Shown here: one piece after another, positions 7,067-15,146 of the stretch
Position numbering within the stretch: position 1 is the stretch's first letter
How the letters are laid out: each line of letters begins with the position of its first letter
NCBI GenBank assembly: GCA_963664325.2
Contig: CAXXDQ010000004.1
Coordinates: forward strand, 576,001 to 640,000
From: Desulfomonilia bacterium
GTDB lineage: Bacteria > Desulfobacterota > Desulfomonilia > UBA1062
Direction of reading: 5' to 3'
Length of the DNA: 64,000 nucleotides
Position numbers and translations under genes: made by a program
Notes under the pieces: generated by a model
What the model was told of the DNA's origin: nothing
The model's input: the letters and a program-made list of their open reading frames with translations, nothing else
The model's database searches: none

Positions 7067-7144
7067 GTCCCTATCGTCTAGCCTGGCCTAGGACACCGGC
7101 CTTTCACGCCGGCAACAGGGGTTCGAATCCCCTTGGGGACGCCA
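7067..7144 (+). tRNA. tRNA-Glu (anticodon TTC), CCA encoded; integration target
   Basis: Acceptor GTCCCTA/TGGGGAC, anticodon arm CCGGC-CTTTCAC-GCCGG, T arm AGGGG-TTCGAAT-CCCCT, ends GCCA. Confidence 0.97.
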
Positions 7145-7145
7145 A
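7098..7145 (+). repeat. attL core (3' half of tRNA-Glu)
   Basis: GGCCTTTCACGCCGGCAACAGGGGTTCGAATCCCCTTGGGGACGCCAA, identical to 15099..15146. Confidence 0.95.
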
Positions 7146-7153
7146 GTAATAAC

Positions 7154-7185
7154 AATAGGTTAGACCGTTTGATCTAACCTATTTT
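7154..7185 (+). terminator. Element-supplied terminator after tRNA-Glu
   Basis: AATAGGTTAGA-N8-TCTAACCTATT followed by Ts. Confidence 0.7.
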
Positions 7186-7198
7186 CATTTTAAGGCAT

Positions 7199-7222
7199 GT
7201 TGTCCCCACGCTATTCCCCACA
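7199..7222. promoter_or_regulatory. Putative integrase arm-type binding sites (left)
   Basis: GTTGTCCCCACGCTATTCCCCACA, tandem TCCCCAC; near-identical copy at 14945..14970. Confidence 0.7.
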
Positions 7223-7371
7223 GGCAAACCTAATTTCCCCTTTTTTCTTAAGAAGTATCTCGCCTGAGAATTGAATAACTTTTTAAGTTTCATAATAGGC
7301 AGTTACACAGTTGGCCCATAAATGGAAATGAAGAAAACTCCAAGGGGGATTCACTCTTTAACACATATTTC

Positions 7372-7384
7372 TATCAGTATATTA
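7372..7384 (+). promoter_or_regulatory. IHF consensus site
   Basis: TATCAGTATATTA matches WATCARNNNNTTR exactly. Confidence 0.5.
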
Positions 7385-7464
7385 CGTTTTCCGTACCGCC
7401 CAACTTTCAGGTTGAAATACCTGTAAAACCTCATTAAGATTGATTCTGTAACAGTATGTCACAT

Positions 7465-7538
7465 GGAAATTTATCCTTTTCCAGCGGGACCCCTCGAGGT
7501 ACTGTAAACCGCAAAGCAAAAACCCGCAACAGGACCCG
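7465..7538 (-). other. Lambda-like cosQ/cosN packaging site (putative)
   Basis: Minus strand reads CGGGTCCT-N30-ACCTCGAGGGGTCCCGCT...AAATTTCC; lambda reads CGGGTCCT-N31-ACCTCGCGGGTTTTCGCT...AATTTTCC. Confidence 0.55.
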
Positions 7539-7704
7539 CTCCATAGGCAGGCCCTTGAAGCAGTCTTAAAGGTTTGTAACATCTACCCGGCAAGTTATGC
7601 AGGGGCATCATGGAGCCTTAGACCTATTAATCATTTAACATACTGTTTATATTAAAAGTAATTGAACTATTCAACAACAAGGCATTGTTAACAATGTCAC
7701 ACTC

Positions 7705-7938
7705 TCGGGACTTCGGGACATTGAAAAAGCAAAGTCCCGACCCGTAGGCCCTTTTCTTTGCCGGGCTTATGGAAAATCTCGGGACTTCGGGACATATATA
7801 AAAGATTAATACTCTTTTTTTTATTATATAATGATTTTTAACAGTTTTCTTAAAAACAAAGTCCCGAAGTCCCGAAAACTAGTAATGATGATTGTTTGCA
7901 GGCGGGACATTGAAAAAGCAAAGTCCCGAATGTCCCGA
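7705..7938. repeat. Iteron array, probable replication origin of the element
   Basis: Ten copies of (T)CGGGAC/GTCCCGA in both orientations around an AT-rich core at 7794-7860; 27-bp direct repeat at 7714..7740 and 7903..7929. Confidence 0.8.
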
Positions 7939-8047
7939 CCCCTGTGCTGATATCGGATATTGAAGGGCTTGCAGCAGACCATAAGTGTTAACGGTTGCCT
8001 GGTTCATTTTATTAATATCTTAATACTTAAATACCGATAAACCTTTC

Positions 8048-8191
8048 ATGGTTCGCATACCGATTGTATTAACCGCCGATCAATTAGAAATGCTCCGAAA
8101 GATATTTCAAACTGAATCTGTAATTACCGAAGCCTTGGCCGAACAGATAAGAAATATCATTCTTGTTTGGGAAGAGTTAGGAGAGAAATAA
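8048..8191 (+). CDS. 47-aa putative ribbon-helix-helix protein (below ORF-track cutoff)
   Basis: MVRIPIVLTADQLEMLRKIFQTESVITEALAEQIRNIILVWEELGEK; followed by hairpin CACAGCCGG..CCGGCTGTG; no clear RBS. Confidence 0.4.
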   Translation: MVRIPIVLTADQLEMLRKIFQTESVITEALAEQIRNIILVWEELGEK

Positions 8192-12715: not shown

Positions 12716-12719
12716 CGTA

Positions 12720-13004
12720 TCATGCAGCTTTCAATATAGTAATCTTGTGATTCTTTTGTCCCGCTGTCCACAAATCGAGCTTCCCCTGCATTTGTAACCA
12801 GCTTTCCGGAGTGGTATCGGTTGCCTTACCTATCCTGATAGCCATATCTGGACTTAATGCAACACGACCATTAACCAGTTCACTCAAAGCCTTTCTGCTT
12901 ACACCAAGATGCTTTGATGCATCAGTTATAGTAATGCCAAGAGGCTTTAAAACATCCTCACTAAATACAACTCCGGGATGCGTAGGCTTTCTTCTTGTTA
13001 TCAT
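12720..13004 (-). CDS. higA: HigA family antitoxin (HTH)
   Basis: PTHPGVVF.E..L, LGVSRKALSELVNG, SPDMAIR and PESWL.MQ motifs. Confidence 0.92.
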   Translation of the reverse strand: MITRRKPTHPGVVFSEDVLKPLGITITDASKHLGVSRKALSELVNGRVALSPDMAIRIGKATDTTPESWLQMQGKLDLWTAGQKNHKITILKAA

Positions 13005-13017
13005 GTCTTAATCTCCC

Positions 13018-13296
13018 TTAATGGTAGTCCTGGTAATCAACCAGGACTGCATCATTTCCTTCAAACTTGAATGTCACCCGCCAATTGCCGTTTACCCACA
13101 CTGACCACATGCCTTGCATATCGCCTTTCAATTCATGAAGCTTATACGCCGGAAGGTTCATATCCTGTGGACACATTGAAGCATCAAGTCTGTCAAGAAT
13201 ACGTTCAAGCTTCGCAGTATGATCGGGCATGATTCCTTTTTTGCTTCCCTCAATAAAAAACTTCTCAAGCCCTTTGTGTTTGAAAGACTTAATCAT
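13018..13296 (-). CDS. higB: HigB family toxin (RelE/ParE superfamily)
   Basis: MIKSFKHKGL, LHELKG, WSVWVNGNWRVTF and DYQDYH motifs; toxin precedes antitoxin. Confidence 0.93.
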   Translation of the reverse strand: MIKSFKHKGLEKFFIEGSKKGIMPDHTAKLERILDRLDASMCPQDMNLPAYKLHELKGDMQGMWSVWVNGNWRVTFKFEGNDAVLVDYQDYH

Positions 13297-13312
13297 GAAA
13301 GGCTTAATATCA

Positions 13313-13331
13313 TGTCACCTTATAGGTTACA
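13313..13331. promoter_or_regulatory. Putative HigA operator
   Basis: Inverted repeat TGTCACCT-TAT-AGGTTACA (7 of 8 pairs) just upstream of higB. Confidence 0.6.
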
Positions 13332-13356
13332 ACGGTAAGTTTAAAAAGTAATTTTT

Positions 13357-13665
13357 CTAATCTGGTTCGATCCCTATTTTTAGTATGCGGTATAATTCGC
13401 AGTCAGATGCCTTAATTGCATCAAGATCAAGCATAATTATTGTTTTATCCTTAGCATTTATAGGCCATAAGGCAACAGATGAACCCTGAATCATTAAACG
13501 CCTTAATAGATATTCCCCATCCTTTTTATATATTACCTGCTGTTTGTGTATTGGTTTGTCGACCGGCTCAATAAGCAATGAAATTCCATTGACGTATTTC
13601 GGAAAAAACATATCACCTGTAACATTGAAACTAAAAATATTTTTGGCCTTTTCCGCTTGTTTCAT
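13357..13665 (-). CDS. Stand-alone degenerate S24/LexA-type peptidase domain
   Basis: FSFNVTGDMFFPKY..G..LLIEP, DGEYLLRRL and LWPIN resemble the S24 pattern F.L.V.GDSM.P...G / T.KRL / L.P.N. Confidence 0.6.
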   Translation of the reverse strand: MKQAEKAKNIFSFNVTGDMFFPKYVNGISLLIEPVDKPIHKQQVIYKKDGEYLLRRLMIQGSSVALWPINAKDKTIIMLDLDAIKASDCELYRILKIGIEPD

Positions 13666-13718
13666 TTTCTACCCCTCCCTCTAATCTATATTTTGCGTCC
13701 TTGAAGACTTATTTTTGT

Positions 13719-14924
13719 TCATGCGCTTTTTAATGAAATCGCCTTGTCTATAATGTCCCCCACTATGCCGGATGCTTTCTTTAAAGCGTCATCCCTCAGA
13801 TGGGCATATCGTTGCGTCATCCTAAAATCCTTGTGCGTCATGAGCTTCTGTAAGGTGTAGATATCAACCTGACCGGATGAAGCCAGCATCGAAGCATAGG
13901 CGTGCCTTAAACCGTGCATGGGGCGGAAATTCTTGGGCAATCCCGCCCTCTGTTTTATCCTTGTCACGACATGATATATCTGTGCGCGCTGATTTCCCTT
14001 ATCTCCAGGGAACACAAACGGGCTTTCCGTTTTCTCGATGGAACTTAAAAGTTCTCCGGCCTTTTCGCTTATCGGGATCATGGCGTTGCGGCCACCCTTG
14101 GGGTTCCTTATCATTATGAAGCCTGTATTGAAGTTTATATCATTCCACTTTAGCTTTAAGAGTTCGCCGCGCCGCATGCCTGTATGCAGGGCCATGAGCA
14201 TCATGTTTGCTACTGTCCGGTTCGGATCCGCCTCTATCGCTATCAGAAGCCTTCTCAACTCGTCCGGTGAAAGGTCTTCCGTAACCACATTATCAACACG
14301 GGGCTTCTGGATTGAAAAGCCAAGGCCTTCAGTAAGGCCTTTCTTGTAACCGTAGTTCGCAATCCTGGTTATCAGATTAAGCACATGCTTGACCGTCTGT
14401 GGTTTGTGCGTCTTGCTCAATTTTATGCGAATCCTGTCAATGTCCAGGGAGACAATTTCATGAGGCTGTTTGACTCCAAGGGGTTTCTCGATGAACTTCC
14501 TGTATCTCGATATATCAATCTGAGCGGGTTTCTTGAACCTCATTTCGGCAATGATCTTGTCAAGGTCGTCGTCTTTAATTTCCTTGTCGGCGAGCTCCTT
14601 CTCATCGGTAGTTGATTTCTCTTTAATGTATCTTCCGAACAAGCGGTTAAACGTCCAGCTTGAATCTCCTGCCCTCCTTGCTGCCTCTTCTTCTGCCCGG
14701 CGCTCTACATTAGTTCTTTGCCGCCCTTCAAGTTTTTCAACTCTGAGACTGTTTGCCCTTGCAGGTGTCATATCGTCCTGCTTCTGCCAGCCCGCCTTTT
14801 CCTCAACAAGCTTACCGTTCTTCCTGTAACGGATATAGTAAACCTTCTCTATGCCCGTTTCACCTTGCGCGTTTATGTAGAACACTCCGGGATATTTTGT
14901 TTTGTGTCTTACCATTTTCGACAT
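13719..14924 (-). CDS. Tyrosine recombinase/integrase
   Basis: Catalytic motifs TGMRRGEL, HGLRH, LMTH and RYAH; adjacent to attR. Confidence 0.96.
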   Translation of the reverse strand: MSKMVRHKTKYPGVFYINAQGETGIEKVYYIRYRKNGKLVEEKAGWQKQDDMTPARANSLRVEKLEGRQRTNVERRAEEEAARRAGDSSWTFNRLFGRYIKEKSTTDEKELADKEIKDDDLDKIIAEMRFKKPAQIDISRYRKFIEKPLGVKQPHEIVSLDIDRIRIKLSKTHKPQTVKHVLNLITRIANYGYKKGLTEGLGFSIQKPRVDNVVTEDLSPDELRRLLIAIEADPNRTVANMMLMALHTGMRRGELLKLKWNDINFNTGFIMIRNPKGGRNAMIPISEKAGELLSSIEKTESPFVFPGDKGNQRAQIYHVVTRIKQRAGLPKNFRPMHGLRHAYASMLASSGQVDIYTLQKLMTHKDFRMTQRYAHLRDDALKKASGIVGDIIDKAISLKSA

Positions 14925-14944
14925 ATTTACCCCTTCCCTATTGA

Positions 14945-14970
14945 GTTGTTCCCCACACTATTCCCCACAC
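14945..14970. promoter_or_regulatory. Putative integrase arm-type binding sites (right)
   Basis: GTTGTTCCCCACACTATTCCCCACAC just upstream of the integrase start; matches 7199..7222. Confidence 0.7.
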
Positions 14971-15098
14971 CTAAAAGACATTTATAAGTAATTTGAAGTA
15001 ATGTCAAGTTAATGATAAACTCTTTATAATGGCTTATATGGCCTTTCTAGGGGTGCAATAAGTAAAACAGGGTAAACAGATAAAAAGGCGCTATAGTT

Positions 15099-15146
15099 GG
15101 CCTTTCACGCCGGCAACAGGGGTTCGAATCCCCTTGGGGACGCCAA
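15099..15146 (+). repeat. attR core (duplicated 3' half of tRNA-Glu)
   Basis: 48-bp exact repeat of 7098..7145. Confidence 0.95.

Follow-up and report, generated by a model that had tools for sequence, protein, structure and literature searches.

An apparently mobile integrase, AlpA and primase island in a tRNA-Glu gene of a Desulfomonilia bacterium

We analysed a 64-kb stretch of DNA from a Desulfomonilia bacterium (GCA_963664325.2, contig CAXXDQ010000004.1), referred to here as the window, whose positions serve as coordinates throughout. Judged by its sequence, the window contains an intact mobile island of the kind that combines an integrase, an AlpA-like regulator and a primase, located in a tRNA-Glu gene between a tRNA-Lys gene and an acyltransferase gene. 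The gene content of the island is closest to that of PICMIs (phage-inducible chromosomal minimalist islands), and by the five-component definition it is not a phage-inducible chromosomal island (PICI). We consider it highly probable that this is a real integrative, self-replicating island. That it depends on a helper phage is plausible, with the case about evenly balanced.

Islands that carry integrase, AlpA and primase genes are established as satellites of phages in enterobacteria, vibrios and marine plankton. In anaerobic sulfate-reducer lineages they are almost unknown territory, and no title or abstract among the literature matches listed paired satellites with Desulfobacterota, Thermodesulfobacteriota or Desulfovibrio. 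A preliminary description of this DNA had assigned the host to a probable Desulfobacterota genome, which is reasonable given the citramalate synthase encoded in the flank: its best named relatives (66–71% identity) come from metagenome-assembled genomes (MAGs) of Deltaproteobacteria, Thermodesulfobacteriota and Desulfomonilia, plus one labelled Pseudomonadota.

Results

Island Boundaries and Integration Site

The island is delimited by two 48-nt att copies that are 100% identical and 8001 bp apart from start to start, exactly as the preliminary description had stated (Table 1). The repeat corresponds to the last 47 nt of tRNA-Glu(UUC) plus one base, and the left copy is carried by the tRNA gene itself, the integration target. 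The identical 48 bp were found in three congeneric genomes (G001, G002 and G003; the genome that holds the window is G000). An Rfam scan of the island returned tRNAs only, plus a partial tRNA at attR. Two terminators mark the ends: one is carried by the island and now closes the tRNA transcript, and the other is the native tRNA terminator outside attR. The flanks are common to the congeners, with ≈82.5% identity on the left in all three and 76–77% on the right in two of them. The sequence shows that the island entered the last 47 nt of tRNA-Glu(UUC) by site-specific recombination, rebuilding the tRNA and bringing a new terminator with it.

A paired motif, TCCCCAC(G/A)CTATTCCCCACA, has one copy 58 bp in from attL and another, identically oriented, ≈130 bp in from attR, and is a candidate for the arm-type sites of the integrase. 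The left end of the island is non-coding over 1.2 kb. Apart from two ≈35-bp matches (E = 3.5e-4 and 8.9e-4), the only part of it with similar DNA elsewhere in 52 genomes of the order was the 83 bp just inside attL, which are 81–84% identical to elements at the same site in G001 and G003 and to a sister island at the second tRNA-Glu gene of G002. At position 7654, within the non-coding left end, one base was missing in the source-sample contigs of two runs, probably an assembly or homopolymer difference.

Table 1. Features of the island and its immediate surroundings, in window coordinates.
Feature	Position	Strand	Evidence and remarks
tRNA-Lys	6982–7055		ARAGORN/Rfam; directly upstream of tRNA-Glu
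tRNA-Glu(UUC), integration target	7067–7144	+	ARAGORN; Rfam tRNA, 57.3 bits; intact after insertion
attL, 48-bp core repeat	7098–7145	+	3' part of tRNA-Glu; exact copy of 15099–15146
Terminator-like hairpin, island-borne	7154–7183	+	Terminator scan; just inside attL
Candidate integrase arm-type site	7203–7222	+	Two TCCCCAC motifs; direct repeat with 14950–14969 (95% identical); putative function
Origin-like region	7690–7945	.	Iterons around an A+T-rich stretch; putative ori, from SaPI/PICI-type layout (SaPI, Staphylococcus aureus pathogenicity island)
orf170, Cys-rich orphan	8320–8832	-	No family; several CxxC pairs; last gene of replication operon
Primase-helicase	8899–11253	-	784 aa; CHC2 Zn ribbon, TOPRIM, DUF3987 helicase (PF13148, E = 3.2e-30, 106 bits)
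orf102a, small Cys-rich protein	11171–11479	-	No Pfam/PHROG/NCBIfam match; between alpA and primase
AlpA-like HTH_17 regulator/excisionase candidate	11457–11714	-	PF12728, E = 1.1e-9, 38.8 bits (cut-off 27); phrog_66 "excisionase and transcriptional regulator", E = 1.1e-8
orf265, small family	11826–12623	-	Conserved motifs PDYxYWI, LLMNxEP and YHIKPxDFIxWAxxxGxRIPEPF
HigA antitoxin	12720–13004	-	TIGR02607, E = 4.1e-28; HTH_3
HigB toxin (RelE-like)	13018–13296	-	PF05015, E = 4.7e-22; phrog_3066, E = 6.9e-35
Stand-alone S24 (LexA/UmuD-type) domain	13357–13665	-	102 aa, without helix-turn-helix; PF00717, E = 1.3e-6, 28.5 bits (cut-off 23.3)
Tyrosine integrase	13719–14924	-	PF00589, E = 2.2e-31 (profile positions 3–170 of 172); phrog_1, E = 2.5e-50; next to attR
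Second candidate arm-type site	14950–14969	+	Pairs with 7203–7222 across core; putative function
attR, displaced tRNA-Glu 3' end	15099–15146	+	Exact copy of attL
Native tRNA terminator	15156–15182		Terminator scan; just outside attR

Gene Content

All nine island genes of at least 85 aa lie on the minus strand, in two apparent blocks: int, the S24-like gene, higBA and orf265, followed by alpA, orf102a, the primase-helicase gene and orf170. We scanned 11 open reading frames (ORFs) of the island against Pfam and PHROGs, and also used NCBIfam and PADLOC. The integrase, the HigBA pair and an AlpA-like gene co-oriented with the primase-helicase gene, all proposed in the preliminary description, were recovered by profile matches (Table 1). 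In the higBA pair the toxin gene comes first, with 13 bp between the two genes, the arrangement of a type II toxin-antitoxin system. The AlpA-like protein also matched the MerR family, under cut-off (E = 5.2e-5).

Equally, no capsid, tail, large terminase, portal, relaxase or lysis family was found among the 11 ORFs with Pfam and PHROGs, in agreement with the gene absences noted earlier. The sole packaging-category match was between the helix-turn-helix (HTH) of the AlpA-like protein and the small terminase (TerS) family phrog_57, at E = 0.0057. PADLOC returned no defence system in the island beyond weak domain matches, and a promoter scan was uninformative (19 sites versus 16.8 expected).

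Four small genes had been singled out as possible new induction or interference functions. Three of them (8320, 11171 and 11826) are still unexplained, and the fourth (13357) encodes an S24 domain that is probably inactive. The product of the first, orf170, had no Pfam, PHROG, NCBIfam or PADLOC match and retrieved only itself among 5.8 billion proteins; its single-sequence AlphaFold2 (AF2) model was unusable, with a predicted local distance difference test (pLDDT) score of 41. Small viral hypothetical proteins appeared as its Atlas neighbours at 0.84, which is under the meaningful level, and they were set aside.

For orf102a there was one credible homologue, 49–51% identical, at the equivalent position in the G002 sister island, such that orf102a comes after alpA in both islands, whatever the replicase. 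Small ORFs at the same position in four other loci with related primases (L033, L036, L009 and L011) were considered as further homologues and rejected on unconvincing alignments.

A search of 1.84 billion representative sequences gave ten weak relatives of orf265 of similar length, and the three motifs listed in Table 1 are conserved in their alignment. The AF2 model (pLDDT 63.7) is moderately confident over the first 165 residues; Foldseek found no PDB fold match to it at E ≤ 0.001, and its Atlas neighbours were unnamed clusters only. Genes occupying the equivalent slot in two sister islands share a C-terminal region with each other; they have no BLASTP similarity to orf265 and were rejected as homologues.

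S24 peptidases use a serine nucleophile and a lysine general base. In the S24-like ORF, Arg55 aligns to Lys156 of LexA, in weak alignments (E = 0.25–0.66), and Asp18 falls at the expected serine position, a placement deduced solely from the conserved 37-residue spacing. The domain is thus probably catalytically dead and no protease, and the ORF looks truncated. It gave no usable BLASTP match to a UmuD-like protein from the same genome. The latter (148 aa, with GTSM and VKRF motifs) is encoded next to a UmuC-like protein (415 aa) on another contig of G000, at C8:179644–181353.

Primase-Helicase and Origin-like Region

The Zn ribbon, TOPRIM and DUF3987 architecture previously proposed for the replicase is well supported, with the Zn ribbon recognised by its conserved Cys and His residues only. 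A start at the ATG at 11181, giving a protein of 760 aa, is likelier than the one listed in Table 1. The TOPRIM part is evidenced by phrog_239 (E = 8.8e-18 over residues 126–292) and by PRK07078 of NCBIfam (E = 3.2e-25). When the island protein is aligned with 13 homologues (14 sequences), the TOPRIM motifs EGE (186–188) and DxD (230–232) and the Walker A motif GxGKT (G382, G384, K385 and T386) are invariant or nearly so. The Zn ribbon scored under the Pfam cut-off (18.1 versus 24.9 bits), yet C58, C81 and C84 are invariant and H61 is nearly so. The best identity to any sequence found was at most 42%. Among known phages and plasmids, no record covered 80% of the primase and every match was below 60% identity.

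The iteron array mentioned in the preliminary description was likewise recovered: ten of the 16 CGGGAC/GTCCCG hexamers in the 7953 bp of the island fall within 256 bp, five on each strand, and enclose a stretch of 88% A+T (7795–7860). The region lies downstream of orf170, after the replicase, in the classical layout of an iteron origin.

Related Islands at Two tRNA-Glu Genes

A second island was found in the same genome at the other tRNA-Glu gene (C8:135777–147839, within locus L032, C8:134501–149000), with 12.0 kb between its repeats. The att' of this tRNA differs from that of the window at four of 48 positions. Its integrase is 87% and its AlpA 52% identical to those of the studied island, and it further carries a Gp49-like/HTH toxin-antitoxin pair, a PC4-like single-stranded DNA-binding protein, a winged-helix protein and a weak TerS-like ORF. 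The distal half of this island contains metabolic-looking genes (a FBPase fragment and a metallo-beta-lactamase fold).

At the same second tRNA-Glu gene, G002 harbours a 6.5-kb island (L028, on G002:C28, 6074–12656) whose integrase is 84%, AlpA 56% and orf102a-like protein 51% identical to those of the studied island, and which also carries a phage O-like initiator and an HGGxSTG protein. In G001, the corresponding tRNA-Glu gene is empty (L030, on G001:C40, ≈14231–14322): the flank follows within 43 bp, versus 6.5 kb away in G002. The comparison of G002 with G001 is therefore a case of occupied-versus-empty polymorphism at tRNA-Glu no. 2. The replication modules of the three islands differ, with the primase-helicase in the studied island, the O-like initiator in G002 and the winged-helix and PC4-like proteins in the C8 island. 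By these sequence comparisons, the islands make up a small mobile family, local to this genus, with both of its tRNA-Glu genes as targets.

At tRNA-Glu no. 1, the site of the studied island, no clean empty site turned up in the three congeners, where the sequence shows an island or a remnant or the contig stops. G003 (L029, on G003:C21, 2397–3998) has 1.5 kb of integrase fragments, 79–81% identical in DNA to the studied integrase, between att copies that match those of the window at 48 of 48 positions, with the right flank immediately after. In G001 the remnant is 3.7 kb long; it has a single att, a toxin-antitoxin pair and an integrase that is broken and of another type. The G002 contig ends 327 bp past att. 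Relatives with an empty tRNA-Glu site, the comparison suggested in the preliminary description, thus exist for the second gene (in G001) and, among the three congeners, not for the studied one. The G003 remnant retains both att copies unaltered, which means that recent movement cannot be concluded from exact repeats.

Related integrases (E ≤ 1e-60) were present in four of the 52 genomes of the order. For related primases (E ≤ 1e-30) the count was 10 among 401 genomes sampled from the phylum, and both figures include the own genome.

Packaging Genes in Related Loci

In the C8 island, a 157-aa ORF matched the TerS family phrog_641 (E = 2.8e-6) and Terminase_2 (E = 0.0031), and the HGGxSTG protein of the G002 island matched the TerS family phrog_1889 (E = 2.8e-8). 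We also scanned 12 loci with related primase-helicases, a small sample picked by similarity, and found terminase genes in four of them (L010, L035, L006 and L127).

L010 (8015–16286 of JAXHLQ010000001.1, a Deltaproteobacteria MAG) is an 8.2-kb tRNA-Arg island with 47-bp repeats, encoding a P27-type TerS (36.3 bits, cut-off 24.7) and a VRR-NUC nuclease. Its primase-helicase consists of two overlapping ORFs of 428 and 473 aa, and is either frameshifted or broken. L035, a 9030-bp metagenome contig, carries a related primase-helicase and a large terminase (TerL) of the gpA type between an integrase fragment at one of its ends and a tRNA-Arg at the opposite one, and may be a small island with its own large terminase. 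L006 carries a TerL-like gene and a ClpP-like protease. In L127, a 16-kb IMG/VR contig, the order int, AlpA-like gene and DUF3987 helicase leads into genes for Erf, a resolvase, TerS, TerL (gpA-type), portal and a fusion of protease and major head. L127 is a phage or else an island that forms capsids and has the satellite-type early region in common. Among the rest of the sample, L011 is a 10.3-kb tRNA-Val island with 65-bp repeats and an HNH endonuclease, and the remaining seven loci have small unknown genes only.

Family scans matched a relaxase in none of the 12 loci, and two of the 12 are apparently parts of capsid-encoding elements. Hence it does not hold for this sample that homologues of the island consistently bear a relaxase or are fragments of prophages, which is one part of the outcome that the preliminary description had named as speaking against a satellite.

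Discussion

The Case for a Possible Phage Satellite

PICIs are defined in SatelliteFinder by five components, given in PMC10085698 as an integrase, a regulator (an alpA, merR or stl homologue), a primase-replicase, a capsid morphogenesis function and a small terminase. Judged by Pfam and PHROG profiles, the island supplies the first three: an integrase (PF00589), a regulator (PF12728 and phrog_66) and a primase-replicase (DUF3987 and the TOPRIM part). Among the 11 ORFs, there was no match to a capsid-morphogenesis component and none to TerS beyond that of the AlpA HTH to phrog_57. Either orf170 or orf265 may be an unrecognisable analogue of a capsid-morphogenesis protein. In the description of the element as a mobile, PICI-like island, mobility is well supported by the precise ends, the two terminators, the common flanks and the presence and absence of sister islands. 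The PICI-like label is half right, and fits as far as integrase, regulator and primase-replicase are concerned. It does not extend to capsid morphogenesis and terS, and the PICMI model is closer.

In favour of helper dependence, the core genes agree with the PICMI model, marine VEIMEs (virion-encapsidated integrative mobile elements) and tycheposons follow a similar logic, the sister islands have weak TerS-like genes, and terminase genes occur in four of the 12 loci with related primases. Several points weigh against reading the island as a helper-dependent satellite. Three of the five core components place it in the ambiguous "Type C" class, which the authors of the definition set aside as possibly defective PICIs, other mobile elements or chance aggregates (PMC10085698). 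No terS, capsid-morphogenesis gene, cos or pac feature was identified in the island, and the cos-like site of the preliminary description, which came with no coordinates, was neither located nor corroborated: the left end had no similar phage DNA in the comparison with the 52 genomes of the order. No resident helper prophage was found in the host either. In the own genome (nine contigs, 95.58% complete), none of eight phage head and packaging families (PF05065, PF03354, PF03237, PF04860, PF17289, PF20441, PF05876 and PF04466) was matched over cut-off, and no terminase, portal or HK97 capsid was found; PF05876 reached 17.1 bits, under its cut-off. Terminases of the gpA type were over cut-off in five of the 52 genomes of the order and in none of the own genus. 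The TerS-like matches in the sister islands span just an HTH (C8) or a short motif (G002), and all three congeners hold an island or remnant at tRNA-Glu no. 1, with the G002 contig stopping there. Cyanobacteria and Salinibacter have small plasmids that bear DUF3987 replicases, so that the replication module alone does not imply a phage.

Read depth adds to these points. Among sequencing runs, the holders of the island were contig sets of one metagenome sample. Of the listed runs, X1, X3, X4 and X5 were examined, and X5 gave only tRNA-like reads of other organisms. The depth of the island compared with its two flanks was 12.9 versus 10.8 and 8.07 in X1, and 2.7–4.5 versus 3.3 and 4.0 in X3, i.e., at most 1.6-fold above the flanks. 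There was no sign of excision or amplification and no junction appeared, although the source-sample contigs break at the att repeats and are therefore unable to show a circle or an empty site. No RNA dataset holding the island was listed in the run search (five runs, one of them an unrelated raw-read run).

If the island is a satellite, its cycle might proceed as follows. A signal would turn on the AlpA-like regulator, by analogy with the action of AlpA in PICMIs and Gram-negative PICIs; the integrase, with AlpA or another directionality factor, would excise a circle; and the primase-helicase, loaded at the iterons, would amplify it. HigBA could stabilise the element or abort infection. Copies would then exit inside the particles of an exogenous helper phage, most likely as head-full concatemers, as in PICMIs and the marine VEIMEs, because the island lacks terS and any capsid-remodelling gene.

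A more far-reaching version would make these islands the first Desulfobacterota satellite family, minimal and helper-dependent, with swapped replication modules and new hijack functions, in which the S24-like protein would be a decoy that pairs with the C-terminal domain of the helper's CI/LexA-type repressor and thereby senses or triggers induction, and the Zn-ribbon-like orf170 would redirect packaging. We regard this combination as very unlikely to be right in full, and the decoy role of the S24-like ORF is speculation.

Alternative Explanations

An integrative, plasmid-like element resembling the tycheposons would excise, replicate by itself and spread through vesicles, transformation or lysis, with HigBA serving as an addiction module. 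On balance we find this unlikely. In its favour, the genes of the island suffice for integration and for replication on its own and include none for packaging, and no helper prophage was found in its genome. DUF3987 replicases matched 116 plasmid records, including a 7.6-kb Oscillatoria plasmid and Salinibacter plasmids of 11.5–14.9 kb, and tycheposons, which target tRNA genes with a tyrosine recombinase and carry a primase/helicase, are described as enriched in vesicles and capsids (bioRxiv 10.1101/2020.12.28.424599). However, the TerS and TerL genes in the sister islands and in several islands with related primases point to phage particles, and in Vibrio the identical core of three genes has been proven to be a satellite. 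Partition and copy-control genes are absent, and the depth in the metagenome contigs is at most 1.6-fold above the flanks.

The element might instead be a domesticated or decaying resident, either a once-mobile island or a prophage that has lost its late genes, passed on by vertical inheritance. The occupancy of the same tRNA-Glu gene in the congeners (1.5 kb in G003, 3.7 kb in G001 and the broken contig in G002) is in keeping with this, as is the identity of the G003 integrase fragments (79–81%), which is close to that of the flanks (≈82.5%) and fits an old common ancestry. Loss of late genes from an arrangement such as L127, in which the early module is joined to late genes, could give an island of this sort, and the S24-like gene is apparently truncated and inactive. 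Nevertheless, nine genes are open, the catalytic motifs of the integrase and the primase-helicase are intact, and both att copies are retained together with the paired arm-type motifs. There were no late-gene fragments among the scanned ORFs of the 1.2-kb non-coding end, and independent repeat-bounded islands of 6.5, 8.2 and 10.3 kb show that the size is normal. An inherited relic seems quite improbable.

Small integrase-plus-replicase islands that lack a relaxase can still be mobilised in trans and the island has no phage genes, but an integrative mobilisable element with an unrecognised oriT and borrowed conjugation machinery is extremely improbable, since no relaxase, coupling protein or type IV secretion system family (Pfam, PHROG and NCBIfam for the island) was found in the island, the two sister islands or the 12 related loci, and the kin bear terminase genes instead.

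If the island is indeed carried by phages, the minimalist satellite lifestyle extends to another phylum and offers new candidates for genes that sense phages or interfere with them. If it is not, the islands are still a clean example of one integrase lineage that occupies the two tRNA-Glu genes of a genus and exchanges replication modules as it does so. The practical value is limited by a host that is an uncultured MAG and by three accessory genes with few or no relatives.

Comparison with Known Satellites

The resemblance to the Gram-negative PICIs of the EcCICFT073 type is that the genes for an integrase, an AlpA-type regulator and a primase-replicase all point the same way and that an origin-like region follows the replicase. 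The size of the island is also near the PICI median of 9.5 kb (PMC10085698). Unlike the PICIs, it is without the capsid-morphogenesis and small-terminase components. More than 99.9% of the PICIs called in that survey are reported from Proteobacteria or Firmicutes, and its authors point out that even a P4 would be classed there as a Type C PICI (PMC10085698).

With P4-like satellites, the island shares an integrase, an AlpA and a primase-helicase and belongs to the ≈10-kb class, but no homologue of psu, delta, sid or epsilon was found in it with Pfam and PHROGs. The alpha protein of P4 has a D5-type helicase, as opposed to the DUF3987 helicase of the studied island.

Tycheposons and VEIMEs, as far as their published descriptions go, likewise target tRNA genes with a tyrosine recombinase and carry a primase/helicase, often with AlpA, and many are without capsid genes. 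They were defined in marine plankton, and the likeness to the studied island described here is one of gene layout. They are documented in capsids as concatemers and in vesicles.

The closest counterparts are the PICMIs. The published model, as stated in PMC10803314, combines an integrase-type marker (PF00589, PF00239 or PF07508), PF05930 or PF12728, PF13148 or PF19263, and a fis site. The studied island departs from it in its location, which is in tRNA-Glu and not by fis, and in its host, which is a Desulfobacterota-like MAG and not one of the Vibrionaceae. Its primase bears an extra Zn-ribbon/TOPRIM N-terminus. In PICMIs the gene iolg is described as overlapping int by a few bases, whereas the S24-like ORF starts 54 bp after int. 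Induction and concatemer packaging are reported for PICMIs and are putative for the studied island; PICMI115, of 6.1 kb and listed without terS, sid and ppi, is carried by a virulent phage as ≈8-mer concatemers (PMC10803314). In the same manner, the studied island is small, without terS, sid, ppi or a capsid gene, and combines long non-coding stretches with few, variable accessory genes, and it carries all three of the element-encoded markers of the published PICMI model, PF00589, PF12728 and PF13148.

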